NCBI GenBank assembly: GCA_963726305.1
Contig: CAVSCB010000013.1
Span: 32,816 to 96,815 of the forward strand
Origin: an uncultured Gammaproteobacteria bacterium
Lineage (GTDB): Bacteria > Pseudomonadota > Gammaproteobacteria > Xanthomonadales > Xanthomonadaceae
DNA length: 64,000 nucleotides
Reading direction: 5' to 3'
The position numbers and the translations under genes are program-made. The notes under the pieces are model-generated. The model was not told the DNA's origin. It searched no databases and saw only the letters and a list, made by a program, of their open reading frames with translations. Below, one piece after another: positions 16,945 through 34,251 of the stretch (its first letter is position 1; the number at the start of each line of letters is the position of its first letter).

Positions 16945-17541
16945 ATGTCGATAATCATCCGCGACGTGCGCGAGCACGAGCTGGATCTGGTGCTGGCGCT
17001 GAACAACGCCGCGGGTCCGGGGATCCTTCCGATGGACGCCGGCAAGCTTCGTTTCTTCTGGGAAAACGCCGATTATTTCCGCGTCGCCGAGAAAGACGGC
17101 CTGCTGGCCGGCTTCCTGGTCGGCCTGTCCCACGACGCGCCGCACGACAGCCCGAATTTCCTCTGGTTCCGCGAGCGCTACCCGGAATTCCTCTACATCG
17201 ACCGGATCGTCATCGCCAGCACCCGGCGCGGCGCCGGCGTCGGCCGGGTTTTCTACGGCGACGTGCAGAGCTTCTCCGAAGTGCGCGTGCCACGACTGGC
17301 GGCGGAGGTGTTCCTTGATCGGAGCAGCCATCCCGCGCTGCTGTTCCACGGCAGCTTCGGCTTTCGCGAAATCGGCCAGCACGTGATGCCCGGCCACGGC
17401 GTTCGCGCCGCGATGCTGGTCAAGGAGCTGTGCAGCTACCCGTACGTCCAGCAGACCTACCATCGCCAGTTGCCCGACCAGCCCTGGCTTGCCGCCCGCG
17501 CCATGCCCGGCCGCACGCCCGACCGCGCGACCGGCACCTGA
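16945..17541 (+). CDS. GNAT family acetyltransferase
   Basis: YIDRIVIASTRRGAGVGRVFY...FHGSFGFREIG. Confidence 0.8.
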   Translation: MSIIIRDVREHELDLVLALNNAAGPGILPMDAGKLRFFWENADYFRVAEKDGLLAGFLVGLSHDAPHDSPNFLWFRERYPEFLYIDRIVIASTRRGAGVGRVFYGDVQSFSEVRVPRLAAEVFLDRSSHPALLFHGSFGFREIGQHVMPGHGVRAAMLVKELCSYPYVQQTYHRQLPDQPWLAARAMPGRTPDRATGT

Positions 17542-17543
17542 GC

Positions 17544-18356
17544 ATGGCGGCCATACCCGATTACGAGCAGGCCGGCGAACTCAAGATCGGCCAGGTCGGC
17601 ATCGCCAACCTGCGCATCCGCTCGCTGGATGTCGGAAGAATTTCCGACGGAGATGCGCGACCGGGTCCGCAGCGCGCCGAAGCTGTTCGCGCGCGCGGCG
17701 ATCATCCTGGATTTCGGCGGGCTGAGCGATTGCCCCGACGCCAGCACCGTCAAGGCGCTCATCGAGGGCCTGCGCGATGCCGGCGTGCTGCCGATCGGCA
17801 TCGCCTACGGCACCAGCGCGATCGAAGCGGTGGCCGGCGAAGTCGGCCTGCCCTTGCTGGCAAAATTCCGTGCTTCCTATGAATACGGCTCGGCGGCAGC
17901 GGCGCCGGACTCGACGAGCCAGGCCGCGGACAAGCCGCGTCGTAGCCGAAGCCGCTCCGGCAAAGAATTCCGCCGCCGAGCCGCCTCGGGCAAGGCGACT
18001 GGTCCGGCTTCGGGCAGGAACGCCGAACCCGGACTGATGCATGTCGCGCCGGTTCGCTCCGGCCAGCAGGTCTACGCCCAGAACCGCGACCTGACGGTTT
18101 GCGCCACGGTCGGCGCCGGCGCCGAAGTCATCGCCGACGGCTCGATACACATCTACGGCGCCCTGCGCGGCCGCGCGCTGGCGGGCGCCAGCGGCCTGGC
18201 CTCGGCGCGGATCTTCTGCCGCGAATTCAACGCCGAACTGGTCGCCATCGCCGGCACCTACAAGGTGCTCGAGGAAGTACCCAAGCAACTGCATCGGCAA
18301 AGCCGTGCAGATCTGGCTGGAAAACGACAGCCTTCGAATCGAAGAGCTGGCTCTGA
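17544..18356 (+). CDS. minC: Septum site-determining protein MinC, frameshifted
   Basis: [10 protein letters not shown]...[26 protein letters not shown]; followed by minD and minE; end approximate. Confidence 0.92.
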
Positions 18357-18387
18357 ATCAAATCTGCGACATCCATGGAGAACCATC

Positions 18388-19200
18388 TTGACTGAAATCA
18401 TCGTAGTGACCTCGGGCAAGGGCGGCGTCGGCAAGACCACCACCAGCGCCAGCATCGCCTGCGGCCTGGCGCAAAGCCGGCAAGAAGACCGCCGTCATCG
18501 ACTTCGACGTCGGCCTGCGCAACCTCGACCTGATCATGGGTTGCGAGCGTCGCGTGGTGTACGACTTCGTCAACGTCGTGCTCGGCGAGGCCTCGCTCAA
18601 GCAGGCGCTGATCAAGGACAAGCGCTTCGAGAACCTGCTACGTGCTGGCCGCGTCGCAGACCCGCGACAAGGACGCGCTGACCAAGGAAGGCGTCGAGAA
18701 GGTGCTCAAGGACATCGCCGACGAGGGCTTCGACTTCATCGTCTGCGACTCCCCGGCCGGCATCGAAAAGGGCGCCTTCCTGGCGATGTACTTACGCCGA
18801 TCGCGCCGTCGTCGTGGTGAATCCGGAAGTGTCTTCGGTGCGCGACTCCGATCGCATCCTCGGGCTGCTGGCCTCGAAGACCCGCAAGGCCGAGAACGGC
18901 GAGCGCGTGCAGGAGCACCTGCTGCTGACCCGCTACAGCCCGGTTCGCGTCGAGAAAGGCGACATGCTTTCCATCGCCGACGTCGAGGAGATCCTGGGCT
19001 TGAAGGTGATCGGAGTGATCCCGGAATCGCCCGAAGTGCTGCAAAGCTCCAACGCCGGCGTGCCGGTGATCCTGGACGACGTTTCCCACGCCGGCCAGGC
19101 CTATACCGACGCGGTTGCGCGAATCCTTGGCGAGAGCGTGCCGCTGCGTTTCACCACCGTCGAGAAGAAGGGATTCTTCTCGAAGATCTTCGGGAGCTGA
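18388..19200 (+). CDS. minD: Septum site-determining ATPase MinD, frameshifted
   Basis: TTG start; [39 protein letters not shown]-terminal [10 protein letters not shown]. Confidence 0.95.
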
Positions 19201-19203
19201 GGC

Positions 19204-19473
19204 ATGGGCATTTTCGATTTCCTCAGCTCGCGCAACAAGAACACCGCCAATGTCGCCAAGGACCGCCTGCGCATCCTGATCGCGCAGGAACGCAGCATGC
19301 GCGGCGCGCCCGATTACCTTCCGTTGCTGCAGCGCGAGCTGCTGGAAGTGATCCGCAAGTACGTCAACGTCGATGTCGATGCGGTGAAGGTCGACCTGAT
19401 CAAGGACGGCGACAACGAAGTCCTCGACATCTCCGTTGCGCTGCCGGAGAAGTCCGCCGCGGCCAGCGGCTAG
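19204..19473 (+). CDS. minE: Cell division topological specificity factor MinE
   Basis: [17 protein letters not shown]...LLEVIRKYV. Confidence 0.96.
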
Positions 19474-19478
19474 CACCC

Positions 19479-19944
19479 ATGCTCACGGTCGGCGACATCG
19501 GCTTCGCTGCGGCCGCGGCCTTGCTCGCCGGGCATGGCCTCGAGCTCCGGCGCGTTGCGACTGGCGAGCCGATCCCCGGAAGCTACTGGGGCGACTCGGA
19601 AGCCGGCCTGATCGCAAGCACCGTCTTCGCCCGGGCGGATACGCCCGTGCACTCGCTCCTGCACGAAGCCGCGCACCTGCTGGTGATGCCGGAAGCGCGC
19701 CGGAAGTCGGTGCACACCGACGCCAGCGACTCGCAACTGCGAAGAGGACGCGGCTTGCTACCTGCAGATCCTCATGGCCGATTCCCTTGCCGGTGTCGGT
19801 CGCGCGCGACTGATGCGCGACATGGACGCGTGGGGCTATACGTTCCGGCTTGGATCTGCCCGCGCATGGTTTGAAAACGATGCCGAAGATGCCCGCGCCT
19901 TCGTTGCTGCGCTGCCGCTTGCACCCCTGTCCGCGCCGGCCTAG
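19479..19944 (+). CDS. Conserved hypothetical protein with HExxH motif, frameshift near 19740
   Basis: IPGSYWGDSEAGL...SLLHEAAH, then EEDAACYLQ...MDAWGYTFRLGSARAWFE in another frame. Confidence 0.7.
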
Positions 19945-19987
19945 CCTGCGCTTCCGAATTCAATCTACCCACACCGGAGTTTCCCTC

Positions 19988-21964
19988 TTGATCTTCCAGC
20001 GCACCCTCCTGACTCTCGCGGTTTCCGCCAGCCTGCTTTCGCTTGCCGGATGCAAGGGCAACAACAATGGCGTGCCCGCCACCGGCGCCGCGGCGCCGCA
20101 GTCGGCCAGCGGCACCGAGACGGCGGACCAATTCATTGCACGGGTAAATGCCGAAATGCGCGCTGACTACCCCGAAATCACGGCCGCGCAATGGCTCTCG
20201 GAAACCTACATCAACGACGACTCGCAGGCAGTGGCGTCCAAGGCTAACGAGCGCGCGCTGGCAAGGCTCGGCGTCTATGTTGAGCAGGCGAAGCGCTTCG
20301 AAGGCCAGCCGATGTCGCCGGAGACCGCGCGCGCTCTGCAGTTGCTGCGGCTTGGCATCACCGTGCCGCCGCCGAAGAACCCGCAGGACCTGGCGGAACT
20401 CACCAGGATCGGCGCCAAGCTCACCAGCGACTACGGCGCCGGCAAGTATTGCCCGGATCCGGGCAATCCCGCCTCGTGCCAGGACATCGGCCAGCTCGAG
20501 GACATCCTCGCGGCGACGGACAGCAAGTCCTACCAGGACCAGCTCACCGCATGGCAAGGCTGGCACACGATCTCGGTCCCGATGCGCAAGGACTACCAGC
20601 GCTTCGTTGAACTGAGCAACGAGGGCGCGCGCGACCAGGGCTTCGCCAATACCGGCGAACTGTGGCGCAGCGGCTACGACATGAAACCGGCCGATTTCCA
20701 GGTGGAGACCGATCGGCTCTGGGGCCAGGTCAAGCCACTTTACGACCAGTTGCAGTGCTACACCAAGAACAAGCTCGTCGAGAAATACGGCGAGCAGGGC
20801 CAGGTCGACGGAATGATCCCGGCGCACCTCACAGGCAACTTGTGGCAACAGGACTGGAGCAATCTGTGGCCGCTGCTGCAACCCTATGCCGGCGTGCCCA
20901 AGCTGGACATCACCGCGACGCTGCAGAAGCAACGCAACGCGAAATACGCAGCGTTGATCGCCGATTTCACCAAGGCCAACAAGCATGCGCCGTCGGCCGC
21001 CGAAGCGGTCGAAGTCGGCCGCGCCGCGGACCTCGAGCAGGCCAAGGCCATGGTCAGGGAGGCCGAGAATTTCTACGTCAACCTCGGCATGCCCAAGCTG
21101 CCCGAGTCGTTCTGGAAGGATGCGCAGTTCATCCAGCCGCGCGATCGCGACGTGGTCTGCCACGCCAGCGCCTGGCCGATGAACATGGACGGCAACGTGC
21201 GCATCAAGATGTGCATCAAGCCCGACGAAGAGTCCTACACCACGATCTATCACGAGCTTGGCCACGTCTATTACTACCTGGCCTACCAGAAGTCCCCCGC
21301 CCTGTTCCAGAACGGCGCCAACGACGGCTTCCACGAGGCGATCGGCGACACCATCGTGCTGTCGATGACGCCCGACTACCTCAACTCGCTCGGCCTGGTC
21401 GACAAGCCGACGGTCAGCCAGGAGGCCGTGATCAATTCGCAGATGCGCCAGGCCCTGGCCAAGGTGGCCTTCCTGCCGTTCGGACTGATGATCGACCGCT
21501 GGCGCTGGGGCGTGTTCGACGGCTCGATCAAGCCCGACCAGTACAACAAGGCCTGGTGGGACCTGAAGGCGAAATACCAGGGCGTGGCCCCGGCCACGCC
21601 GCGCGGCGAGGAGTTCTTCGATGCCGGCGCCAAATACCACGTGCCGAACAACACGCCTTACACGCGCTACTTCCTGGCGCGCATCCTGCAGTTCCAGTTC
21701 TACAAGTCGCTGTGCGATGCGTCCGGTTTCAAGGGACCGCTGTACGAGTGCAGCTTCGCCAACAGCCCCGAGGCCGGCAAGCGCTACTGGGCGATGCTCG
21801 AAAAGGGCGCAAGCCAGCCATGGCCGCAGACGCTGAAGGAGCTCACCGGCGGCGAGCAACTCGACGGCTCCGCGGTGCTGGAATACTTCGCACCGCTCAA
21901 GGGCTGGCTGGAAACGCAGAACCAGGGCAAGCAGTGCGGCTGGCAGGCTGGCGCGGGCGGCTGA
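19988..21964 (+). CDS. M2 family peptidyl-dipeptidase A (ACE-like) lipoprotein
   Basis: TTG start after GGAG; lipobox LAGC; HLTGNLW, CHASAW, HELGH, GFHEAIGD, KYHVP. Confidence 0.93.
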   Translation: MIFQRTLLTLAVSASLLSLAGCKGNNNGVPATGAAAPQSASGTETADQFIARVNAEMRADYPEITAAQWLSETYINDDSQAVASKANERALARLGVYVEQAKRFEGQPMSPETARALQLLRLGITVPPPKNPQDLAELTRIGAKLTSDYGAGKYCPDPGNPASCQDIGQLEDILAATDSKSYQDQLTAWQGWHTISVPMRKDYQRFVELSNEGARDQGFANTGELWRSGYDMKPADFQVETDRLWGQVKPLYDQLQCYTKNKLVEKYGEQGQVDGMIPAHLTGNLWQQDWSNLWPLLQPYAGVPKLDITATLQKQRNAKYAALIADFTKANKHAPSAAEAVEVGRAADLEQAKAMVREAENFYVNLGMPKLPESFWKDAQFIQPRDRDVVCHASAWPMNMDGNVRIKMCIKPDEESYTTIYHELGHVYYYLAYQKSPALFQNGANDGFHEAIGDTIVLSMTPDYLNSLGLVDKPTVSQEAVINSQMRQALAKVAFLPFGLMIDRWRWGVFDGSIKPDQYNKAWWDLKAKYQGVAPATPRGEEFFDAGAKYHVPNNTPYTRYFLARILQFQFYKSLCDASGFKGPLYECSFANSPEAGKRYWAMLEKGASQPWPQTLKELTGGEQLDGSAVLEYFAPLKGWLETQNQGKQCGWQAGAGG

Positions 21965-21971
21965 TCCGGGC

Positions 21972-22457
21972 ATGAGCGGCGAGATCGGAACCCCGGCCAC
22001 CGGCGCGCTGCGAGTGCAGCGCGCGGACCTTGCGCAACTCGACCCCGCGAGCCGGCTGTTCCAGGCCTATCTGGGCTTTTACGGCAAGGCGGTGCCGGCG
22101 GACGCCGCCCGCGGCTTCATCGAGGCGCGTCTTCGCCAGCAGGATTCCGTGATCCTCCTGGCCTGGCTGGACGCCGCAGCCGTTGGCTTCATGCAGCTGT
22201 ATCCGACCTTCGCCAGTCTTTCCCTGGCGCCCGGCTGGATCCTCAACGACCTGTTCGTGGATCCGGCGGCCAGGGGCCGAGGCGTGGGTGAAGCCCTGAT
22301 GCAGGCGGCCCGGGAACTGGGCCTGGCCAATGGGGCCGCCGAGATACTCCTGCAGACCGCGCGCGACAACGTGACCGCGCAGAGGCTCTACGAGCGCCTC
22401 GGGTACCAACGCGACGACGAATTCCTGGTCTACACGCTGAGCCTCCCCCCGGCCTGA
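21972..22457 (+). CDS. GNAT family acetyltransferase
   Basis: LNDLFVDPAARGRGVGEALM...NVTAQRLYERLGY. Confidence 0.88.
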   Translation: MSGEIGTPATGALRVQRADLAQLDPASRLFQAYLGFYGKAVPADAARGFIEARLRQQDSVILLAWLDAAAVGFMQLYPTFASLSLAPGWILNDLFVDPAARGRGVGEALMQAARELGLANGAAEILLQTARDNVTAQRLYERLGYQRDDEFLVYTLSLPPA

Positions 22458-22487: not shown

Positions 22488-22508
22488 TGTTAAACGTACG
22501 TACAATAA
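22488..22508 (+). promoter_or_regulatory. Putative TetR/BetI-type operator 1
   Basis: TGTTAAACGTACGTACAATAA, 16/21 identical to the site upstream of the Rieske gene. Confidence 0.6.
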
Positions 22509-22562: not shown

Positions 22563-24159
22563 ATGTCGCAAAAAGCGTTTGACGTGATCGTGGTCGGTGC
22601 CGGCCACAACGGGCTGGTCACCGCCTGTTACCTGGCGCGCACCGGGCTGAAGGTGCTGGTGCTCGAACGCAGCGACAAGGTCGGCGGCGCCGCCGTCAGT
22701 CGCCAGATCTACCAGGACATCACCTACTCCAACTGCTCCTACGTCTGCAGCCTGCTGCGGCCGGAAATCATGCGCACGCTGGAATTGCCCAAGTACGGAT
22801 TGCAGATCATTCCGTACGAGGGCGGCGCGACCATGATGAGCAACGGCGACCACTACGCCGCCTACCGCAACCCGGACGCCAAGCGCCGCGAGATGGCCCG
22901 GCATTCCAAGCGCGATGCCGAGGCCTACCACCGCTACTCCAACGACGTGATGCGGCAGTGCAAGTTCATCAAGCCGCTGCTGATGCGCACCCCGCCCGAC
23001 CCGACCTCGTTCAAGCCGCGCGACCTGATGGAACTGCTGTACCTGGGCAAGCGCTTTTACGGCATGGGCGAACAGCGCATGTACGACACCATCCGTTTCT
23101 TCACCATGAGCGCGGCCGACTACCTCGATGAGTATTTCGAGAGCGACGTGATCAAGGGCCACCTGTCCGGCAGTTCGATCATCGGCACCGCGCTCGGCCC
23201 GCGTTCGCCCGGCACGGCCTATGTGCTGCTGCATCACTACATGGGCGAGGTGGACAACAACGTCGGTTCATGGGGTTTTGCCCGCGGCGGCATGGGCGCC
23301 ATCACCCAGGCGTTGGCGAAATCGCTCAAGGCGTCCGGCGGCGAGATCCGGGTCGATTCGGCGGTCGACCAGATCATGGTCCGCGGCGGCAAGACCTCCG
23401 GCGTAAGCGCTCGACACCGGCGAGGAGATCCTCGCCCCCATCGTGGTCTCCAACCTCGACGTCAAGCGCACCTTCCTCAAGACCATGGACGCCAACGACC
23501 TGCCGGCGGAATTCGTCGAGCGCGTCCGCAACTTCAGGATCCGCGGCTCGTCCGGCAAGCTGAACATCGCGCTGGATGGCGTGCCGAATTTCCCGTCCAT
23601 ACCGAGCGATTCGCCGGTCATGCGCGGCGACCTGCACATCACCGAGTCGCTCGATGAAGTCGAGCGCGCCTACGACGACTGGAAGGAAGGCCGCTGGTCC
23701 ACGGTGCCCTACATCGACATGATCATGCCTTCCCTGATCGACCCGACGATGGCGCCGGAGGGCAAGCATTTCCTCTCGGTGTTCGTGCAGTACTGCCCGT
23801 ACCAGCTCGCCGAGGGCGAATGGAACGACGAGCGCCGGCAGCGCTTCGGCAACACCGTCATCGACGCCATCGCCAAGTACAGCCCTGACTTCAAGCAGAA
23901 GATCCTGCATGCGGAAATCCGCACGCCCTGGGATATCGAAAACGAAGTCGGCCTGACCGAAGGCAACATTTTCCAGGGCGAACTGACCATGGACCAGCTG
24001 ATGTTCAACCGCCCCGTGCCCGGCTACGCGCAGTACCGCACGCCGGTGAAGAACGTCTACATGTGCGGCTCGTCCACCCACCCCGGCGGCGGTGTCATGG
24101 GCGCGCCGGGCGCCAACGCAGCGCGCGAGATCCTGCGCGACCTCGGCCGGAGCCAATAA
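22563..24159 (+). CDS. Phytoene-dehydrogenase-like (PYROXD2-type) FAD oxidoreductase A, frameshift near 23405
   Basis: GAGHNGL FAD motif, CSYVCSLLRP, GTAYVLLHHYMG, GGMGAIT, GNIFQGEL, CGSSTHPGGGVMGAPGANAA. Confidence 0.88.
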
Positions 24160-24160
24160 C

Positions 24161-25729
24161 GTGAGCACGCCCAAGAGTTACCACAGCATCATCATCGGCG
24201 GCGGCCACAACGGCCTGGTCTGCGCCGCGACGCTCGCCCGCGCCGGCAAATCGGTCCTCGTGCTCGAGTCGGCCGCAACCCTCGGCGGCGCGGCGCGCAA
24301 TCGCGAATTCGCCCCGGGCTTCAACGTTTCCGCCGGCGCGCACCTGCTGCATGGCCTGCAGGAAGAAGTGGTTCGCGAACTGGACCTGGCCAGGCATGGA
24401 TTGCGCTTCGCCGGACAGGCGATGCCGAGCTACGCCCTGTCCACCGACGGCAAGGCCATTCGCCTCGGCGATCGGCAACTTTCCGGCGACGGACTTTCCG
24501 ATGCCGACATCGCCGCCTACGCGCGTTTCACCGAGACGATGGCCCGCTATGCCGGCGCGCTGCTTCCGGTCCTGCAGATGGTCCCGCCGCGACTGTCGAT
24601 CGATACCTGGGCGGCGCGCCTCGATTTCGCGAAGATCGCCTGGAGCATTCGCCGCCTCGGCCGCCATGACATGCGCGATCTGCTGCGCATCATCGGCATG
24701 AACATGTACGACCTGCTCGACGAGTATTTCGAATCCGACCTGCTCAAGGGCGCGCTGGCCATGGATGCGGTGCTTGGCGCCGAATGGGGCCCGCGTTCGC
24801 CGGGCACTGTCCTCACCTATCTGTACCGCCTGTCCGGCCTGGCTGGCGGCAAGGGGTTGGGCGTCGCGCAACCGTTTGGCGGCATGGGCGCGGTCTGCGC
24901 GGCGATGGCCGCATCGGCCTCCGGGGCGGGCGCGGAGCTGCGCACTTCCGCGCGCGTCCGTCGCATAGTCGTGGAAGGCGACCGCGCCTGCGGCGTCGAG
25001 CTGGATTCGGGCGAAGTCATCCGCGCCGATAGCGTCATCTCCAATGCCGATCCGCGCACGACCTTCCTTTCCCTGCTCGGCCCCGCGCACCTGGATGCCG
25101 GCTTCGTGCGCAAGGTGCATCACCTGCGCGCCTCCGGCCGCGCCGGAAAGCTGCACCTGGCGCTGCGCGAACTGCCGAAGTTCACCGGCGTCTCCGCGAC
25201 GGCGCATGGCGACCGATTGCTCATCGCGCCCTCGATGAACTACCTGGAGCGCGCCTTCAATCCAAGCAAGTACAGGGAATATCCCTCGCAGCCGGCACTG
25301 GAGATCAGCCTGCCCAGCGTGCGCGATGGAAAGCTCGCGCCCGCCGGCCGGCATGTGTTGTCGGCGGTGGTGCAGTTCCTGCCCTATGACGACGGCGCCG
25401 ACCGCGACGCCAATCGCGCGCGCTGCCTGGAAGCGATACTCGATACGCTCGAGCGTCATGCCCCCGGCATCCGCAGCCTGGTCACCGCTTCCGAATTGCT
25501 GACGCCGTTCGACATCGAGCAGGAGTTCGGCATGTCCGGCGGCCACTGGCACCATGCCGCGATGGGCTTCGACCAGTTCTTCTTCATCCGTCCGGTTCCG
25601 GGCGCTGCCCAGCATCGGACACCGGTGGACGGCCTGTACCTGTGCGGCGCCGGCTGCCATCCGGGCGGCGGCGTGATGGGCATCGCCGGCCGCAATGCCG
25701 CGCAGCAAGTTCTCCGTGGAGGAAAGTGA
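24161..25729 (+). CDS. Phytoene-dehydrogenase-like (PYROXD2-type) FAD oxidoreductase B
   Basis: GTG start; GGGHNGL, GGMGAV, GGHWHH, CGAGCHPGGGVMGIAGRNAA. Confidence 0.88.
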   Translation: MSTPKSYHSIIIGGGHNGLVCAATLARAGKSVLVLESAATLGGAARNREFAPGFNVSAGAHLLHGLQEEVVRELDLARHGLRFAGQAMPSYALSTDGKAIRLGDRQLSGDGLSDADIAAYARFTETMARYAGALLPVLQMVPPRLSIDTWAARLDFAKIAWSIRRLGRHDMRDLLRIIGMNMYDLLDEYFESDLLKGALAMDAVLGAEWGPRSPGTVLTYLYRLSGLAGGKGLGVAQPFGGMGAVCAAMAASASGAGAELRTSARVRRIVVEGDRACGVELDSGEVIRADSVISNADPRTTFLSLLGPAHLDAGFVRKVHHLRASGRAGKLHLALRELPKFTGVSATAHGDRLLIAPSMNYLERAFNPSKYREYPSQPALEISLPSVRDGKLAPAGRHVLSAVVQFLPYDDGADRDANRARCLEAILDTLERHAPGIRSLVTASELLTPFDIEQEFGMSGGHWHHAAMGFDQFFFIRPVPGAAQHRTPVDGLYLCGAGCHPGGGVMGIAGRNAAQQVLRGGK

Positions 25730-25730
25730 A

Positions 25731-26939
25731 ATGCAGACCGCCGAGCGCAATCCTCCCGTCTACCGCCAGCCGCTGCTGACGACGCCGTTCTTCGAGTGCT
25801 ACGAACCGCTGATCGAGACCCGCGCCTTCCGCCAGTGGAGCGGCTACAACACGCTGACCGTGTTCTCGTCGGTGGAGCACGAGTACTTCGCGATCCGCAA
25901 CACGTCATCCCTGTTCGACATGTCGCCGATGATCAAGTACCGGATCAATGGGCCGGATGCCGAGGCGTTCCTGAACCGGCTGGTGACGCGCGACGTCAGC
26001 AAGCTGAAGAAGAACCGCGTCACCTACACCATGTGGTGCGACGACGAAGGCCATGTGATCGACGACGGCACGATCTTCCGCCTGGGCAAGACCGAATTCC
26101 TGCTGTGCACGGCCGAGCGCCAACTGGACTGGTTCCTGTATTCGGCGATCGGCTTCGACGTGAAGGTAGTCGAGATCACCCAGGACATCGCCGCGCTGGC
26201 GCTGCAGGGCCCGACTTCCTGCGCCGTGCTCAAGAAGATGGGCCTGGCCGGCGTCGAGAAACTCAAGCCATTCGAGATCGGCACCTTCAAGGAGCCCGGC
26301 TTCGAGATCATGGTCTCGCGCACCGGCTTCACCGGCGACCTGGGCTATGAACTGTGGATCGCCCCGGAACATGCCCGCGCGCTCTGGGATGCGCTGATGG
26401 CGGCCGGCGAAGCCCGCGGCATCCGCCCGATCGGCTTCGGCGCGCTGGAGATGGCGCGCATCGAGGCGGGATTGCTGCTGCCCGATTCCGAATTCGTCAA
26501 CGCCGAGTTCACCTTGCGGGTCAATCGCGCGCACACGCCCTTCGAACTGGGCATGGAGTGGCTGGTGGACATGGAGAAAGGCAATTTCACCGGGCGCCGC
26601 GCCTTGCTGCAGCAGCGCAAGGAAGGCCTCAAGCGTTGCCTGGTCGGCCTGGAAGTGGATGGCAAGAAGCCGGCCATCGATGCCCTGATCTACGACGGCA
26701 AGGACGCCAAGCGACGCATCGGCGCCGTCACCTCGGCCATGTGGTCGCCTACCTGCAAGCGCAACCTGGCGATGGCGATGATCGATGCCCCGCACTTCAA
26801 CAGCAAGAGCGAATTGTGGGCGGAAATCTACGTCAAGCGCGAACTGGTCTGGCAGCGTCGCATCGTGCCCTGCCGCATCGTCGAGCGGCCGTTCTACTCG
26901 CCGGAACGCCGCAAGCTGACGCCACCGAACGACCGCTGA
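25731..26939 (+). CDS. GcvT-like folate-binding aminomethyltransferase family protein
   Basis: EYFAIRN...FDMSP, IDDGTI, ALQGP, SRTGFTGDLGYEL, RIEAG. Confidence 0.9.
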   Translation: MQTAERNPPVYRQPLLTTPFFECYEPLIETRAFRQWSGYNTLTVFSSVEHEYFAIRNTSSLFDMSPMIKYRINGPDAEAFLNRLVTRDVSKLKKNRVTYTMWCDDEGHVIDDGTIFRLGKTEFLLCTAERQLDWFLYSAIGFDVKVVEITQDIAALALQGPTSCAVLKKMGLAGVEKLKPFEIGTFKEPGFEIMVSRTGFTGDLGYELWIAPEHARALWDALMAAGEARGIRPIGFGALEMARIEAGLLLPDSEFVNAEFTLRVNRAHTPFELGMEWLVDMEKGNFTGRRALLQQRKEGLKRCLVGLEVDGKKPAIDALIYDGKDAKRRIGAVTSAMWSPTCKRNLAMAMIDAPHFNSKSELWAEIYVKRELVWQRRIVPCRIVERPFYSPERRKLTPPNDR

Positions 26940-26948
26940 GCCCGGCGG

Positions 26949-27587
26949 TTACGCGAAAGTCTGGGCCACGAAGCCGAGGCAGGCAGCCTCGGCTTCCTCG
27001 GCGGTGAATCCCTTCGGGTCGAGGCACCATTCGAGCCAGAACCCGTCGATCAGGGCGATGATCGAGAGCGCCGCCCGGCGCGTGTCCACCGTCTTTCCGC
27101 GTTTCCTGGCGATCTCTTCGAAGATGCCCTGGTAGGTCTCGCGATCCTTCTCGAACAGCTCGCGATTGAGCTTTCGCAGCGCTGGCGACTTGCCGATCGC
27201 GCTCCAGAATCCGGCCCAGATGCCCAGGTATTCCTGCTTGAACATGGCCGGGCCGAAGCTGACGCGGATCATCGCCTGCAGTTTGTCCTCGGGCTCGAGG
27301 TAGTTGCCGCGCAGGCTGCCGTGGGTCTGGAACATCCATTCGTCGCGCAGCGCCTTGTAGGACTGCCGGATCAATTCCTCCTTGCTGCCGAAGTGGTGGT
27401 TGATCAGGCCGCGCGACACCTGCGCCTCGTTGCAGATGGTCTCGATGGTGGTGCCGGCGTAACCGTACTTCGAGATCGAGCGCATGGTCGCTTCGATCAG
27501 GGAACGGCGCCGGACCTCGGGGGATTCCCGGTGGCGCTTGGCAGGCGCCGGCCTGCCCTTCCTTGCCGCTTGCTCGGTACTCGGCAT
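26949..27587 (-). CDS. TetR family regulator, BetI-like
   Basis: HTH TTIETICNEAQVSRGLINHHFGSKEEL; C-terminal ALIDGFWLE. Confidence 0.88.
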   Translation of the reverse strand: MPSTEQAARKGRPAPAKRHRESPEVRRRSLIEATMRSISKYGYAGTTIETICNEAQVSRGLINHHFGSKEELIRQSYKALRDEWMFQTHGSLRGNYLEPEDKLQAMIRVSFGPAMFKQEYLGIWAGFWSAIGKSPALRKLNRELFEKDRETYQGIFEEIARKRGKTVDTRRAALSIIALIDGFWLEWCLDPKGFTAEEAEAACLGFVAQTFA

Positions 27588-27624
27588 GATGACTGCGATC
27601 TCGCTTGGTTGCCGCCGGAGTTTC

Positions 27625-28494
27625 TCAGCGGAAAATGATGGTCTTGTCGCCATTGAGCAGGATGCGGTGCTGCACGAACCAGTTCACCGCCCGCGCCAGC
27701 ACCACCGACTCGACATCGCGGCCCATGGCCGTGAATTCCCTGGCGCTCAGGGAATGGTCGACGCGAATCACATCCTGCTCGATGATCGGCCCCTCGTCGA
27801 GGGCGTCGGTGACGAAGTGCGCGGTGGCGCCGATCAGCTTCACGCCGCGCGAGTGCGCCTGCGTGTACGGATTGGCGCCCTTGAAACTGGGCAGGAACGA
27901 GTGGTGGATGTTGATCGCGCGCCCGCGCAGGGCGCGGCAGAGCTCGGGCGAAAGGACCTGCATGTAGCGGGCCAGCACCACCAGGTCGATGCGTTCCTGC
28001 TCGACCAGTTGCAGCAGGCGCTGCTCCTGTTCGGCGCGCGTTTCCGGCGAGATCGGCAGGTAGTGGTAAGGGATTCCGTGCGACTCGGTCAGCTTCCTGA
28101 AGTCCTCGTGGTTGGATACCACCGCGCGGATATCGGCGTGTATCAGGCCGCTGGAGTAACGGAAAAGCAGGTCGTTGAGGCAGTGGCCGATCCTCGAGAC
28201 CATCAACAGCACGCGCGGCTTGGTGCTGGCGTCATGCAGGCGCCAGTCCATCTGGAACAGATCGCCCAGCGGCTTGAATTTCTCCGCAAGGCCCGCGCCG
28301 CCGCCGGTCTGGTCGGCGAAGTGGACGCGCATGTAGAACACGCCGGTCGCAACATCGTTGAACTGGGCGCTGTCGAGGATGTTGCAGCCGTTGTCGGCCA
28401 GGATCCCGGAAACCGCGCGGACGATGCCGCGCTGGTCGGGACAGGAAAGCGTGAGGATGTATTCCCTGGTCCGGGAGGCCTTCTTGCTGGACAT
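27625..28494 (-). CDS. purU: Formyltetrahydrofolate deformylase
   Basis: ACT domain CPDQRGIV; LARYMQVLS, INIHHSFLPSFKGANPY, LDEGPIIEQ. Confidence 0.96.
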   Translation of the reverse strand: MSSKKASRTREYILTLSCPDQRGIVRAVSGILADNGCNILDSAQFNDVATGVFYMRVHFADQTGGGAGLAEKFKPLGDLFQMDWRLHDASTKPRVLLMVSRIGHCLNDLLFRYSSGLIHADIRAVVSNHEDFRKLTESHGIPYHYLPISPETRAEQEQRLLQLVEQERIDLVVLARYMQVLSPELCRALRGRAINIHHSFLPSFKGANPYTQAHSRGVKLIGATAHFVTDALDEGPIIEQDVIRVDHSLSAREFTAMGRDVESVVLARAVNWFVQHRILLNGDKTIIFR

Positions 28495-28497
28495 CGG

Positions 28498-29850
28498 TCA
28501 GGCGACTTCGCTTGCGGCTTTGCCTGCCGCCCGACGCGAGCGCATCAGGTAGAAAACCGGCACGGCGACGCCCAGCAGGACGAAGCCCCAGAACACCGCC
28601 TCCTTGCCCGCGCCGACCAGCGTCCACAGCGCATATAGCGTGCCCAGCGCGCCGGCGATAGCGAGGCCTACGGTTCTCCTGCCAGCGGCGGCCAGCTTGC
28701 CGTTGCGCAGCAGCACCAGCACCGCCAGCGCGCACAACAGATAGGTCACCAGGTTGGCGGTGGTCGCCAGCAGGATCATGAAGGTGAACACCTCGACCAT
28801 GGACTTCTGGTAATTCATCAGCACCAGTATCGTGATCAACGTGCTGCCGATGTACAGCGAGACCGCCGGCGTCTGCCTTGGCGATTCCTTGGCGAATATC
28901 TGCGGAAATTCGCCCTTCCTGGCCATCTGGAACGGCAGTTCGCCCTGCAGCAGGATATTGCCGTTCAGGCAGCCCAGCCCACTGATCACCACGAACAGCG
29001 CCATCCAGTGCGCCGCTGCACCACCCCAGAACCGTCCGGCGACTTCGGCGAAGGGAGCGTTCGAGTGGGCCAGCTGGTCACCCGGGATCAACAGCATGAC
29101 GGCCATGCACACCACGATGTAAATCGCCCCGGTGAGGAACGTTCCGGCCATGGTGGCGAGCGGAATCGTCCGCTCCGGATCGCGCACCTTGCTTGACATC
29201 ACCGAGGCCGACTCGAAACCCAACATCGCCCAGAGCGTCAGGGTCGCCGCGGTCGTCACCGAATCGAGTTTGAACGGGGTGTGCAGGAACTCGGAGTTGC
29301 CCAACTGCGACCTGTCGCCGAATACCAGCGCCGCCGTCAGCCCGACCACCGCCAGCAGCGGCAGCAACTTGAGCACGGTGGAGACGATCTGCACCTTGCC
29401 GGCCGCGCGGATATCGTAGGCGTTGACCGCAGTGAGCACCCAGACGAAGAATATCGTCGAGCCCGCCGATGCGCCTGGCACTTCGGCAATCCATGGCAGC
29501 AAGCTGCTCAGATAGGAAGTCACCCCGGTTGCGATTGCCGCGTTGCCGACCCACAGGCAAACCCAGTAACCCCAGGCGCCAACGAACGCGGTGAGATCGC
29601 CGAAGGCCAGCCGGGTATAGGCATAGGGTCCTTCGGCGGTCGGGAAAGCCCGGCTCAGGCCGGACAGGGACATCGCCAGGAACAGGGCCCCGGCTACCGT
29701 GAGCAACCAGGCCCACAAGCTGTTCAAACCATAGGGCGCCAGTGATGCCGGCAACATGAAAATGCCGGTACCGATCATGTTGCCCACCACCAACGCCACG
29801 CACATCCAGAAACCAAGCTTTCGCGCCGAATCGTCAGTCTGCTGGTTCAT
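28498..29850 (-). CDS. APC family amino acid/polyamine permease (AdiC/CadB/PotE-like)
   Basis: GNMIGTGIFMLPASLA, GPYAY, WAMLGFESA; about 12 TMs. Confidence 0.9.
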   Translation of the reverse strand: MNQQTDDSARKLGFWMCVALVVGNMIGTGIFMLPASLAPYGLNSLWAWLLTVAGALFLAMSLSGLSRAFPTAEGPYAYTRLAFGDLTAFVGAWGYWVCLWVGNAAIATGVTSYLSSLLPWIAEVPGASAGSTIFFVWVLTAVNAYDIRAAGKVQIVSTVLKLLPLLAVVGLTAALVFGDRSQLGNSEFLHTPFKLDSVTTAATLTLWAMLGFESASVMSSKVRDPERTIPLATMAGTFLTGAIYIVVCMAVMLLIPGDQLAHSNAPFAEVAGRFWGGAAAHWMALFVVISGLGCLNGNILLQGELPFQMARKGEFPQIFAKESPRQTPAVSLYIGSTLITILVLMNYQKSMVEVFTFMILLATTANLVTYLLCALAVLVLLRNGKLAAAGRRTVGLAIAGALGTLYALWTLVGAGKEAVFWGFVLLGVAVPVFYLMRSRRAAGKAASEVA

Positions 29851-29889
29851 GGCGTTTCCCCGGTTTGCCGAGCGTCAAGGACAGCACGT

Positions 29890-31026
29890 TCAGCCATGCC
29901 GGGCAAGCCGCTCGAGCAACCAGCGGTCGAGTCCGGTCAGCAGTTCCTCGCGATTGGAATAGGGTCCGGGCTGATAACCGAAGGTCGAAATCCCTTCCTG
30001 GGCCCGATCCGACAACTCCCAATCCTGCTGGTTGGTCATCTCCCAGAAATCCACTGCCCCGCTCGGATCGAAGTCCGGCCTGGCGATTGCATCGGGATGG
30101 AAATGCCACTCGCAGACGACGTCGGTGCGATCCACGGCCATCGGCCACAACTGGAAAGTCATCATGTAGTCGGGGTCGAGGTTCAACAGGAAATTCGGCA
30201 GGATCGCGTAGTAGTAGACGCGCCGACTGTCCTCTGCCGAAATTCCCGGCAGGTTGGCGTGATTGCTCTGGCCGTCGGTGGTCATGGTCTTGACCCCGGG
30301 GCGCAGGTCCATGCTGCCGCCAAGGTAGGTCGGCTGCGGCGGCTCGTTGTCGCCGCTCATGTAATGCGAGAGCTTGTTGAGCTGCGGGTGCGCGATCGGA
30401 CAATGCATGCACTCGGAATAGTTTTGCAGGATCAGTTTCCAATTGGCCTTGAGGTTGTAGACCCGGCGCTCGACCAATTTGAGATCGGCCATTCCCCACG
30501 GCGCGAACTTCTGGTCGAGGCCGGCCAGATGCTCCGAAAACGGGATCGGCCGCTCCGCCATGTTGATGAAGATATGTCCGTCCCAGATCGCGGTGGCCAC
30601 CGCTCCCAGCGGATAGTCCTCCATGCGGAAGCCCTCGACCTTTTCCATGTTCGGCGCACCGGTCAAGCGGCCATCCAGTTCATAGGTCCAGGCGTGATAG
30701 GGACAGCGGAACTTGCCGGCCACCTTGCCGGACTGCTCCTTGCACAACTGCGTGCCGCGGTGTCGGCAGGTGTTGTGGAAAGCGGCGATCTCGCCGTTCT
30801 TGTCGCGCACCACGATTATGTTCACCCCGGCGAAGCGCACCAGGAAATAGCTGCCCGCTTCGGGCAGCTGTTCGGTGCGGCCTGCGCTGAGCCACATGTC
30901 ATGGTGCACGGCCCGCAATTCGCGCTGGAACATCTCAGGATCGGTGTAGTAGCCGGCGGGCAGGGTCATCGCCTCTGCCGTAGTCACTGCGGGCCGGTTA
31001 TTGGTATATCGGACGCTGGTCGACAT
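29890..31026 (-). CDS. Rieske non-heme iron oxygenase alpha subunit (betaine N-demethylase/choline monooxygenase-like)
   Basis: Rieske CRHRG...CPYHAW; mononuclear Fe NYSECMHCPIAHP; QQDWEL...GYQPGPYS. Confidence 0.9.
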   Translation of the reverse strand: MSTSVRYTNNRPAVTTAEAMTLPAGYYTDPEMFQRELRAVHHDMWLSAGRTEQLPEAGSYFLVRFAGVNIIVVRDKNGEIAAFHNTCRHRGTQLCKEQSGKVAGKFRCPYHAWTYELDGRLTGAPNMEKVEGFRMEDYPLGAVATAIWDGHIFINMAERPIPFSEHLAGLDQKFAPWGMADLKLVERRVYNLKANWKLILQNYSECMHCPIAHPQLNKLSHYMSGDNEPPQPTYLGGSMDLRPGVKTMTTDGQSNHANLPGISAEDSRRVYYYAILPNFLLNLDPDYMMTFQLWPMAVDRTDVVCEWHFHPDAIARPDFDPSGAVDFWEMTNQQDWELSDRAQEGISTFGYQPGPYSNREELLTGLDRWLLERLARHG

Positions 31027-31062: not shown

Positions 31063-31083
31063 TTATTGTCGGTTCGTTCAATA
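31063..31083 (-). promoter_or_regulatory. Putative TetR/BetI-type operator 2
   Basis: TATTGAACGAACCGACAATAA on the - strand (TATTG-N10-CAATA dyad), about 40 bp upstream of the Rieske start. Confidence 0.6.
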
Positions 31084-31107
31084 GTCTACTGCAATATTCC
31101 GCTCCGC

Positions 31108-32365
31108 CTACATCTCGTCGGTAGGTTCCATGCTGGCGGCATTGGGACTGGCCTGCGGCCAACGGTCGCAGTGCGCCAGGTACCAGCGCCACATGGCGTA
31201 GGCCACGGCCGTGAATGCGGCCGCCCCCAGCGCCAGGTGCATCGGGTGATCGCTCAGCATCGGCGAAAGCAGGCCGGCTATCAGCGCATTGGACAGCAGG
31301 CCGACGAAGGCCTGCATCGAGGAGGCCGTGCCGCGCATGGCCGGATACATGTCCAGGATCGCGATGGTCAGGATCGGGAACACCAGCGCGACGCCGAACG
31401 CGCTCAGCACGGTCGGCAGCGACCGCCCACGGCAGGACTCGGAACTCGGAACCGCGAAGTTGTAGCGAAATATTGAACAAGCGCCGACAGGCCGCAGAAC
31501 AGGAAACCGGTATTGGCCAGTTGCACGCCGGTGACCCTTCCGGCCGAGCGACCGCTCAGGAAGGCGCCGAGGATCATGCCGCCGATGGTCGGCGCGAAAA
31601 AATAGCCGAATTGCTGCTCGTTCAACTTGAGGATGTCCAGGACGAAGGCCGGCGCCGAGGCGATGTACAGGAACAGCGCGCCAAAATTGGCGGTGCCGGC
31701 CAGGGCCAGCAGCCGGAAACGGCCATTGCCGAGGATGCCGCGATAGGCGCCGGCCATTGCCCTGAAGTTCAAGGGTAGCCGGGCTTCCGGCGGATGGCTT
31801 TCCGGCAAGGCGATCGCCGTGGTCAGCCATCAGCAGCAAGCCAAAGGCCGACAGGAACCAGAAAATCGCCTGCCAGTTGCTCCAGCCGAGAATCCAGCCG
31901 CCAACGATCGGTGCGATAGCCGGGGCCACGCCGAAGATCATCGAGACATGGCTCATCAGCCGCTGGGCATCGTCGCCATCGAGCGCATCCCGCACCACGG
32001 CGCGGCCGACGATCAGGCCGACGCCGGCCGATAGTCCCTGCACCACCCTGAAGAAAAGCATCTGCGGCATGGTCGCCGATAGCGCGCAGCCCACCGAGGC
32101 CAGCGCGAAGACGGCGATGCCGGCGAGGATGACCGGCCGGCGACCGAGCGCATCCGACAGCGGCCCGTGCACCAGCGACATCGCCGGCATAGCCGAGCAG
32201 GTACATGCTGATGGTCTGCTGCATCGCGACCTTGCTGACCGCCAGATCGTGTTCCATCACCGCGAAGGCCGGAAAAACCGTATCGATCGAGAACGGGCCG
32301 AGCATGGCCAGGGCGCCCAGGATCAGGGCAAGCCGGCGTTTGGAGATGGATAGATGGGGGATCAT
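31108..32365 (-). CDS. Bcr/CflA family MFS efflux transporter, frameshifted
   Basis: GPFSIDTVFPAF, GPLSDALGRRPV, APAIAPIVGG, GTASSMQ. Confidence 0.88.
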
Positions 32366-32441
32366 CGAGGCGAAGTGATTAAATACCGTGCCAGCATAGC
32401 AGCTGGCTTGATTTGGCCTGGCACGGACCCATCACTGGACG

Positions 32442-34251
32442 ATGAATACCGACGTACCCGAATTGGCGCTGGGGCGCCCCCAGGGCGAACGCCCGACTGC
32501 GCAGGTTCTCAAGCGCCTGACGCCGTTCCTCAAGCCCTACCGCGGCAGGATCGCGATCGCGATGGCCTTCCTGCTGAGCGCCAAGGTGGCCGGGCTTGCC
32601 GTGCCCATGGTTCTCAAGCGCCTCATCGACACGCTGGGAATGACCGCCACGATCGCAGTCATTCCTGTCGCGCTGCTGCTGGCTTACGGCGCCGCACGCC
32701 TGTCCGAGCGCGTGTTCACCGAGATGCGCCAGATCGTGTTCGCCCGGGTGATGGCGCGCTCATCGCGCATGGTGATGCTGTCGGTGTTCCGCCACTTGCA
32801 CTCCTTGTCGCTGCGCTTCCACCTCAACCGCTCCACCGGGGGCGTAACCCGCGACGTCGAGCGCGGCGGCTCATCGATCTCCGACCTGCTGGACTGGACC
32901 CTGTACACGATCGTGCCGACGCTGATCGAGGTTACCCTGGTCACCTGCGTCCTGGTCTACCTCTACGACGTCTATTTCGCGCTGGTAACGCTGGCCGTGC
33001 TGGTCGCCTACATCGCCTGGACGATCAGCGTCACCGAGTGGCGCACCAAGTACTATCGCGCCTCGGTCGAGGCCAACACCGCCGCCAGCGCCAGCGCCGT
33101 CGATTCGCTGCTCAATTACGAAACGGTCAAGTATTTCAACAATGAACGGCACGAGGCGGAACGTTACGACATCAGCCTTCGCCAGATGGAAGAGGCCAAC
33201 ATCAAGAGCTACAAGACGCTGGCCGTGCTCAACGTCGGCCAGAGCGCGATCATCGCCATCGGCGTCACCGCGCTGATGTTCAAGGCCGCCGCCGGCGTCG
33301 TCTCCGGCAAGCTGAGCGTGGGCGACCTGGTGCTGGTCAACGCCTATCTTCTGCAGATGGCGATGCCACTCAATTACCTCGGCATGATGTATCGCGAGGT
33401 CAAGCAGGCGCTGACCAATATCGAACGCCTGTGGGGCTTGCTGGACGAGCAGCAGGAGGTGCGCGACGATCCCTCTGCGCCGACCGCTGGCAACCACGCA
33501 ACCACGGGTTTCGTTCGAGGCCGTGCGCTTCAGCTATGACGTGCGCAGGGAAATCCTGCATGGCATCGACTTCGAGATTCCACCCGGGCACCGGGTAGCC
33601 GTGGTCGGGCACTCGGGCAGTGGAAAGTCCACGCTTGCGCGACTGCTGTACCGCTTCTACGACGTCGACAGCGGATCGATCCGGATCGACGGCAGCGATC
33701 TGCGCGCCCTCACCCAGGATTCAGTACGGGCCGCCGTGGGCATCGTTCCGCAGGACACGGTGCTGTTCAACGACTCGATCCGCTACAACATCCGCTATGG
33801 CCGGCCCAGCGCCTCGGACGAGGAAGTGGAAGCCGCCGCGCAGGCCGCGCACATCCACCGCTTCATCGTTTCGCTCCCGGACGGCTACGACACTCCGGTC
33901 GGGGAGCGTGGGCTGAAACTGTCCGGCGGCGAAAAGCAGCGGGTCGCGATCGCGCGCGCCTTGCTGAAGAATCCGGCGATACTCATTTTCGACGAGGCGA
34001 CCTCGGCATTGGACTCCGCCAGCGAGAAAGCCATCCAGGCCGAACTGGACCGGATAGCGGTCGGCCGCACGACGCTGATCATCGCGCATCGGCTGTCGAC
34101 GGTGATGGACGCGGACCAGATCCTGGTGATGGACGCCGGCAATATCGTCGAACGCGGCAGCCATGCGCAGTTGATCGAGCGAAACGGCCACTATGCGGCC
34201 ATGTGGCGGCTGCAGCAGCAAAGCGCCGAAGCTCCTGCGCTTCAGGACTAG
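32442..34251 (+). CDS. Atm1-type ABCB exporter (TMD plus NBD), frameshift near 33480
   Basis: LSLRFHLNRSTGGVTRDVERG, DSLLNYETVKYF; GHSGSGKST, GERGLKLSGGEKQR, FDEATSALD. Confidence 0.9.

Follow-up and report, generated by a model that had tools for sequence, protein, structure and literature searches.

A putative folate-linked N-demethylation locus built on PYROXD2-related flavoproteins in an uncultured gammaproteobacterium

Introduction

A 64,000-nucleotide (nt) stretch of DNA from an uncultured gammaproteobacterium of the Xanthomonadaceae (assembly GCA_963726305.1, contig CAVSCB010000013.1, positions 32,816 to 96,815; the whole stretch is called the window hereafter) carries, at window positions 22563 to 31026, genes for two flavoproteins related to animal PYROXD2, A and B, and for a GcvT-like protein, T. 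Facing them are genes for a Rieske oxygenase, a permease, formyltetrahydrofolate deformylase (purU), and a TetR repressor. Which reaction, and which substrate, would these seven genes serve together? The question extends beyond this locus: the degradation of methylated proteins always sets methylated lysines free, and the flavoprotein family of A and B has so far never been shown to demethylate.

Our analysis indicates that the locus probably performs the folate-linked N-demethylation of some methylated amine. N6-methylated lysines, with a demethylating Rieske step, are the leading candidate substrate, to which we give about an even chance. They lead because the predicted operator of the locus also lies beside genes of the trimethyllysine hydroxylase (TMLH) type and because A retains motifs of PYROXD2, whose human gene is genetically tied to methylated lysines. 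New here are a predicted palindrome shared by both operons, the same predicted site at loci with a single flavoprotein and at TMLH-type loci, and a division of sequence motifs between A and B.

Conservation of the flavoprotein-GcvT trio

Open reading frame (ORF) calls and profile searches of the window found all seven genes where the original prediction, made from the sequence of the locus, had placed them, and reproduced its two convergent operons with their 1-nt gaps. On the plus strand, A (22563 to 24159) is followed by B (24161 to 25729, with a GTG start) and T (25731 to 26939), with 1 nt between the members of both pairs. On the minus strand, the Rieske gene (29890 to 31026) is followed by the permease gene (28498 to 29850), purU (27625 to 28494), and the TetR gene (26949 to 27587; the start of its longest ORF is at 27653), which converges with T across a gap of 9 nt.

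An identity of at least 60% was taken to define an orthologue of A, which gave 14 among 400 genomes of the phylum; the other matches, at 36-43%, were solo homologues. These 14 and 3 relatives made up 17 loci, which are not independent because 8 of them belong to one family. The two flavoprotein genes and T stood side by side in all 17, with TetR in 16 (tblastn), and a T orthologue was absent from all 20 loci of solo homologues. The grouping of A, B, and T is not due to chance. Among 20 actinobacterial loci, tblastn found the trio in 15, an A-like gene with T only in 2, and no T in 3. Three further loci (L019, L103, and L106) had an A-like gene and GcvT but not B. All four plasmid loci combined the trio with TetR, a Rieske gene, a class III aminotransferase gene, and a polyamine-type ABC transporter.

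The other genes were less constant, which weighs against the seven-gene pathway proposed below: purU was present in none of the 17 loci (3/26 in a second count), the permease in one (3/26), and the Rieske gene in six (14/26), while genes for PotD/PotF-like binding proteins were present in 11 of the 17. Since the trio is constant and purU and the permease are rare, the conserved unit is A, B, and T, and the other two genes have been added to it locally. The co-occurrence of genes assumed in the original prediction thus held for the trio but not for purU and the permease as partners. A further point against the pathway is that no fusion of A or B to GcvT was found among 20 long homologues. Apparent A-B fusions (P0006, P0121-P0126) had out-of-frame or truncated junctions and look like frameshift artefacts, and P0128 is a distant case; none was used as evidence. 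Relatives of A were abundant, since all 8000 of 8000 candidates scored and the best 120 were mostly 72-76% identical, so the pathway may matter in the nitrogen turnover of soil and water.

T is a stand-alone GcvT-fold protein (PF01571 and PF08669), predicted to be the tetrahydrofolate-binding acceptor of formaldehyde. Its best PDB match was the C-terminal part of trimethylamine N-oxide (TMAO) demethylase, the folate domain (E 7.7e-56), and its invariant residues are D63, E207, and R243. It scored below the cut-offs for GcvT, DmdA, Tdm, and SoxA; in particular, it is not a glycine-cleavage T protein (252 bits against a cut-off of 300, and 193 against 236), and its neighbours are A, B, and TetR rather than gcvH/gcvP. 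The purU product, which has ACT and formyltransferase domains, scored 413 bits with NF004684 (cut-off 223) and 340 with TIGR00655 (cut-off 286), and FolD is encoded in the genome. The conserved trio, the likeness of T to the TMAO demethylase folate domain, the PurU scores, and FolD give contextual support to the folate-linked N-demethylation proposed in the original prediction.

Gene A is interrupted in the window by one extra base at 23408/23409, which divides it into ORFs 22563-23657 and 23443-24159. An assembly error is the most likely cause of this interruption because A was unbroken (531-533 aa) in all five close relatives checked, because the extra base was absent from the public contigs of three of four runs (the fourth had no depth there), and because other genes of the window change frame relative to their relatives, namely minC, minD, the following gene, an MFS transporter gene, an ABC transporter gene, and parC (17400-19900, 31100-34250, and 42594-44718). 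With so many single-base assembly errors, broken genes in the window are not evidence of decay. The intact A of the relative L004, about 90% identical, was substituted wherever the whole A protein was required.

The nearest relatives of the locus are labelled Arenimonas, Lysobacterales, or Gammaproteobacteria. In several of them, as in the window (19850-22457), genes for an M2 peptidase (angiotensin-converting-enzyme-like) and a GNAT acetyltransferase lie upstream of A. The trios of family f67 (L051-L056, L066, and L067) are accompanied by genes for a flavin amine oxidase, an uncharacterised protein of 85 aa, and a class I SAM methyltransferase, the last of which diverges from A; those of Actinobacteria (L088-L103) are accompanied by phosphodiesterase-family (12/20), agmatinase-family (11/20), and aconitase X (7/20) genes.

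Flavoproteins A and B and the PYROXD2 family

A and B are paralogues that are 36% identical, both with a CrtI/amine-oxidase-type fold. In two trees, the family split into A with short branches, B with long branches, and the solo bacterial enzymes including animal PYROXD2. The trees were rooted on one distant outgroup, and animal PYROXD2 was represented by Xenopus and marsupial sequences. The approximate likelihood-ratio test (aLRT) gave 91.7 for the group of PYROXD2 and solo enzymes and 8.7 for the exact sister of PYROXD2. Identity to the Xenopus and marsupial proteins was 36-40% for A, 34% for B, and 44% for a solo enzyme.

A belongs to the PYROXD2 family by full-length similarity and by the motifs SYxxSL, YVLLHH, and GNIF; together with W238, N335, and FxQY, these are common to A and animal PYROXD2 and largely also to the solo enzymes, and they probably line the active site. 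B has AHLLHG, TYLYR, and GHWHH instead and keeps its FAD-binding motifs. Alignment columns conserved at 90% or more numbered 204 in A and 94 in B. Because A keeps the PYROXD2 motifs and B has replaced them, we infer that A is the catalytic subunit and B, its faster-evolving paralogue, a partner subunit. Of the two flavoproteins that the original prediction called PYROXD2-like, only A keeps the motifs, and animal PYROXD2 itself groups with the solo enzymes rather than with A or B. That A is not an orthologue of PYROXD2, with both A and B outside the PYROXD2/solo group in both trees, is another point against the pathway proposed below.

Structure models of the L004 homologue of A (pLDDT 88.7) and of B (pLDDT 88.8) matched carotenoid desaturases first; LSD1 and oxidases acting on monoamines, putrescine, and nicotine came next. 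None of the solved relatives of either protein exceeded 23% identity. The best fold match of B was 4rep (Z 34.0, rmsd 3.0, 469 aligned). A role of A and B as ketolases or desaturases of carotenoids (CrtO/CrtI type), with neighbours unrelated to them, is barely credible. Although CrtO was the best NCBIfam match and a gamma-carotene desaturase the best fold match, the CrtO cut-off of 1000 is far above the scores of B (241) and of the pieces of A (123 and 161), and the GcvT partner is constant. The lack of nearby carotenoid genes seen in the original prediction was borne out: none lie beside A or B, and phytoene synthase (PF00494) was not matched in the 60%-complete genome. Finch PYROXD2 had no carotenoid activity in cells (10.1101/2024.11.26.625526).

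Human genetics provides the link to lysine. According to PMC8109053, the PYROXD2 variant rs2147896 explains 50% of the variance of N6-methyllysine, 48% of that of N6,N6-dimethyllysine, and 21% of that of N-methylpipecolate, which verifies an association named in the original prediction; the same paper relates that older studies linked PYROXD2 to urinary trimethylamine and plasma dimethylamine. A 2026 study tied PYROXD2 to N2-acetyl-dimethyllysine, with no reaction given in the part concerned (PMC13352909). An enzyme activity of the expected kind, epsilon-alkyllysinase of rat kidney, has been on record since 1963 (PMC3936616); it releases the methyl group of N6-methyl-lysine as formaldehyde and leaves lysine. 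Its discoverers equate it with LSD1, which tells against PYROXD2 as the enzyme, although the passages of PMC3936616 concerned hold no data for that equation. The up-regulation of Pyroxd2 in Gldc-triplication mice also occurs without the triplication and was not used. A literature search outside subscription journals found no characterisation of the trio, no reaction for PYROXD2, and no bacterial route that demethylates methyl-lysine. A bacterial monomethyl-lysine demethylase has reportedly been described, which a search for "methyllysinase" did not confirm.

Two side observations concern the solo enzymes. In L082, L144, and L145, all of one family, the solo PYROXD2-like gene adjoins prmA, for ribosomal protein L11 lysine methyltransferase, which may be inherited gene order. 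TPR-sulfotransferase and TonB-dependent receptor genes recur at solo clusters (L075, L125, L128, L137, L141, and L187).

Rieske oxygenase, electron source, and permease

Profile and PDB matches and metal ligands place the Rieske protein, an alpha subunit, in the quaternary-amine group (group V). The Rieske ligands C87/H89/C108/H111, the mononuclear iron ligands H208, H213, and D335, and the bridging glutamate E205 are all kept. It is not a GbcAB system, as it scored 262 of 670 bits and has no adjacent GbcB-type reductase. Position 203 is tyrosine, as in CntA; Stc2 and GbcA have no aromatic residue there. In CntA, Tyr203 makes a cation-pi contact with the trimethylammonium group and Glu205 is the bridging residue (PMC7948474). 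The Y203/E205 pattern fits a trimethylammonium group far from the carboxylate and would suit trimethyllysine.

A CntA-type tyrosine means that the enzyme may cut off trimethylamine rather than one methyl group, converting trimethyllysine to trimethylamine and allysine, with the trio handling di- and monomethyl-lysines or released methylamines in parallel. We consider this quite unlikely. The older links of PYROXD2 to trimethylamine and dimethylamine would agree with it, but in overall similarity Stc2 (E 4.8e-54) and the GbcA model come ahead of CntA (E 8.7e-39), and genes for the use of trimethylamine were not seen in the cluster. Of the first-methyl step assigned to the Rieske enzyme in the original prediction, the quaternary-amine group stands, and the enzyme may remove either one methyl group or the whole trimethylamine.

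The source of electrons is a weak point of the demethylating reading as well, since the motif pair of a Rieske reductase was found near the trio in none of 25 Rieske-bearing loci (the window and 24 others); L030 has a separate ferredoxin system. The absence is not specific to the trio, because 11 of 20 control loci away from any trio also had no reductase, while 9 of them, of the gbcA type, had one. For this reason the flavoproteins were set aside as the Rieske reductase; a transfer of the electrons gained by the pair to the Rieske enzyme, which has no reductase beside it, is kept as a bold option. Behind some Rieske-solo-TetR operons lies a reductase-like gene that looks like one for an NADH dehydrogenase of the NDH-2 type. 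The genome has three PF00175 genes, one CysJ-like, one Fpr-like, and one broken and without identity. In L029, L057, and L058, two Rieske genes of different clades lie in tandem immediately after T, one with the bridging Glu and the other with a different motif, and possibly encode a mixed oxygenase.

Profile scores and a comparison of residues with AdiC indicate that the permease is an APC transporter of the AdiC/PotE/CadB kind, below the cut-offs of the AdiC, CadB, and PotE antiporters (241 of 574, 179 of 585, and 202 of 409). It keeps AdiC W202 and E208, as W207 and E213, which we take to surround the alpha-amino acid site; where AdiC has W293, presumably the guanidinium contact, it has N298.

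A predicted operator shared by the two operons

An imperfect 18-bp palindrome, the predicted TetR operator 1, lies at 22489 to 22506, 57 nt upstream of gene A and between it and the M2 peptidase and GNAT genes; it was found upstream of A in the window and in six of six close relatives. A matrix trained only on the A-upstream sites of these six relatives ranked the window site at 22489 first and a second site, predicted operator 2 (31065 to 31082, 39 nt upstream of the Rieske gene), second among 3,156,350 genome positions. The Rieske-upstream site was also found in L004 and L008 but not in L006, and no place in 63 control loci (952 kb) scored 14.5 or more. Because one palindrome precedes both, the two converging operons are likely one regulon. 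Promoter and terminator scans gave signals at chance level.

A related palindrome is present at distant trios; in L027 and L030 it is found again upstream of the genes for the Rieske protein and an aminotransferase. A re-centred matrix from these trios ranked the window sites only 191 and 73, a point against the proposed pathway, and a de novo motif from them that was out of register did not recover the window sites (ranks 633,483 and 2,048,732). The TetR protein has a BetI-type C-terminal domain but is not BetI, with 117.5 of 201 for TIGR03384, 117.4 of 118 for NF001978, and no betAB beside it.

Loci of related TetR repressors

Of 20 clusters that combine a TetR gene with a solo flavoprotein gene, a Rieske gene, or both, the window matrix matched 17; in the other three, the contig or gene call ends at or near the Rieske start. 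In several of the solo clusters there is also a gene for an AdiC-like permease that shares about 41% identity with the one of the window. Clusters of TetR, Rieske, and solo flavoprotein genes repeat the layout of the window with a single enzyme, which comes from the group of PYROXD2. L192 (2-3155) has a GcvT-like gene, a flavoprotein gene of the solo group, and a TetR gene in a row, and is one case of a PYROXD2-side enzyme with a putative folate partner of its own.

The closest TetR match among the 400 genomes (38%) is divergent from a dioxygenase gene that passes the trimethyllysine-dioxygenase cut-off, not that of BBOX or TmpA, and five further loci of this type were found among 80 metagenome loci. 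Three such dioxygenases passed TIGR02410 with 299, 332, and 323 bits (cut-off 268), and the operator lay between the two genes in five of the six loci. All five dioxygenases with sequence covering the site have Asp at the position of BBOX Asn191, a replacement that marks TMLH and is said to give its specificity (PMC7764450). The genes of these loci (L132:7235-8362, L177, L181, L186, L188, and L215) are candidate bacterial trimethyllysine hydroxylases with the TMLH-type Asp and the same predicted operator. A methylated lysine had been guessed at in the original prediction, and the shared operator together with TetR relatives beside TMLH-type genes supports that guess. Other TetR relatives are encoded next to binding proteins of the lysine/arginine/ornithine type.

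Other features of these loci weigh against it. The TetR proteins beside solo enzymes and hydroxylases are just 30-39% identical to that of the window; their single clade had a support of 0.97, but of 70 with more sequences; and a shared operator implies a shared DNA-binding head rather than a shared ligand. The Rieske proteins of the solo clusters belong to a different clade, 29% identical to that of the window. Related TetR genes also lie beside an arginine-deiminase-like gene (L134) and AruI genes (3/80 loci), both kinds across L134 and L135, and an MttB-family methyltransferase gene is present in 8 of the 80. A TetR at 48% identity lies beside a gamma-butyrobetaine dioxygenase gene (L169), with a weak site (9.7). 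The nearest TetRs (57-75%) and most of the distant trios occur with PotD/PotF-like proteins and omega-aminotransferases, which suggest polyamines; an acyl-CoA ligase and dehydrogenase also accompany these nearest TetRs.

Several of these neighbours would fit a trio that demethylates omega-N-methylated chains without an alpha-amino acid head, such as delta-valerobetaine, gamma-butyrobetaine, N-methyl-cadaverine, N-methyl-putrescine, or other N-methyl polyamines, the free amine then being transaminated and beta-oxidised. Besides the binding proteins at 11 of 17 loci (one "PotF" match had E 9e-106) and the butyrobetaine dioxygenase, the omega-aminotransferases PRK07036/PRK07480 near trios, acyl-CoA ligase (8/80) and dehydrogenase (6/80) at TetR loci, and the flavin amine oxidase of the f67 clusters are consistent with such a route. 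We nevertheless regard it as unlikely, given that the permease keeps the AdiC residues that we assume to form the alpha-amino acid site, that the operator scores low at the butyrobetaine locus and high at TMLH-type loci, and that human genetics points to lysines. The two readings overlap, because methyl-lysine gives rise to some of these compounds.

As the substrate, a methylated form of arginine or of a guanidine compound seems improbable. Related TetRs beside a gene of the arginine-deiminase/DDAH family and one for 5-guanidino-2-oxopentanoate decarboxylase point to it, as do the agmatinase-family genes of the actinobacterial loci, AdiC as the best transporter match, and GntE-like aminotransferases upstream of A in some loci. 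However, methylarginines offer no quaternary nitrogen to a CntA/Stc2-type Rieske enzyme, a guanidino N-methyl group is a poor substrate for a flavin oxidase, the permease is without the presumed guanidinium contact W293, and the agmatinase genes may owe their place to inherited gene order. Taken across the TetR-relative loci, the common thread appears to be a methylated nitrogen that ends a C4-C6 chain, which trimethyllysine and its products would fit most.

Two further sets of loci were observed. In L129-L131, L165, L167, and L198, a related TetR gene accompanies a lysine/arginine/ornithine-type ABC transporter, a class I aminotransferase, an AstE-like hydrolase, and in some AruI, which together may transaminate a modified basic amino acid. 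In L133, L180, L184, L191, L199, L201, L209, L214, and L227, it accompanies the MttB-family methyltransferase, often with a flavoprotein of the old-yellow-enzyme type, which may act first on similar substrates, in a cobalamin-dependent reaction.

Proposed pathway

In the pathway that we favour, the seven genes would be one TetR-controlled regulon that imports N6-methylated lysine and removes its methyl groups. The permease would import tri-, di-, or monomethyl-lysine freed by proteolysis, and the ligand would release TetR from both operators. Genes for M20, M13, S9, and M24 peptidases are frequent beside solo enzymes, and these, like the M2 gene of the window, fit a substrate freed from protein. 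The Rieske enzyme, with electrons from a reductase encoded elsewhere, would attack the quaternary trimethyl form, the simplest outcome being dimethyl-lysine and formaldehyde. Flavoprotein A, with B as its partner subunit, would oxidise the remaining N-methyl groups to the iminium, T would capture the carbon as methylene-tetrahydrofolate, and FolD and PurU would free the folate again with release of formate. The solo bacterial enzymes, like animal PYROXD2, would catalyse this oxidation with no folate protein dedicated to them.

Somewhat short of an even chance, in our view, is the broader proposal that bacteria recycle free N6-methyl-lysine through a three-subunit folate-coupled demethylase, that its solo form is the PYROXD2 lineage, and that human mitochondrial PYROXD2 is the demethylase of free methyl-lysine, epsilon-alkyllysinase. 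If true, it would give the PYROXD2 family a testable reaction, and the regulon would name its substrate, its sensor, and soluble three-part and one-part bacterial enzymes.

Comparison with known systems

The model for flavin-dependent N-methyl oxidation coupled to a folate domain of the GcvT fold is provided by dimethylglycine and sarcosine dehydrogenases and dimethylglycine oxidase (PDB 5l46, 4p9s, and 1pj5), whose C-terminal domains T matches (E 5e-26 to 2e-22). Those enzymes fuse a DAO-family domain to GcvT, whereas the present locus has two separate flavoproteins of the CrtI/monoamine-oxidase fold and a stand-alone GcvT protein; with separate genes, another fold, and no such fusion among the long homologues, the trio falls outside that group. 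Tdm (PDB 9q59) and DmdA are the closest sequence relatives of T, but T is without the N-terminal 400 residues of Tdm and scores far below the cut-offs of both.

The heterotetrameric sarcosine oxidase SoxBDAG (PDB 2gag and 1vrq) resembles the trio in its several subunits, with one predicted catalytic flavoprotein, a further nucleotide-binding subunit, and a folate domain, and purU is a frequent neighbour of its genes. However, the locus has no homologue of soxB, D, or G, its flavoproteins belong to another family, and T scores 162 against 1164 for soxA. The best PDB matches of the Rieske protein, Stc2, GbcA/BmoA, and CntA, share with it the bridging Glu and iron ligands; it differs from them in its score below the GbcA cut-off, its CntA-like Tyr203, and the lack of an adjacent reductase. 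LSD1 and epsilon-alkyllysinase are alike in the flavin-dependent removal of N6-methyl groups from lysine, and the LSD1 fold is shared (Z 21.1, rmsd 4.9, 411 aligned), but LSD1 acts on histones and is 13% identical. Animal PYROXD2 is of the same family as A and B and has its motifs in A, but it groups with the solo bacterial enzymes. By these comparisons, the trio would work like dimethylglycine dehydrogenase or sarcosine oxidase while being a member of neither family.

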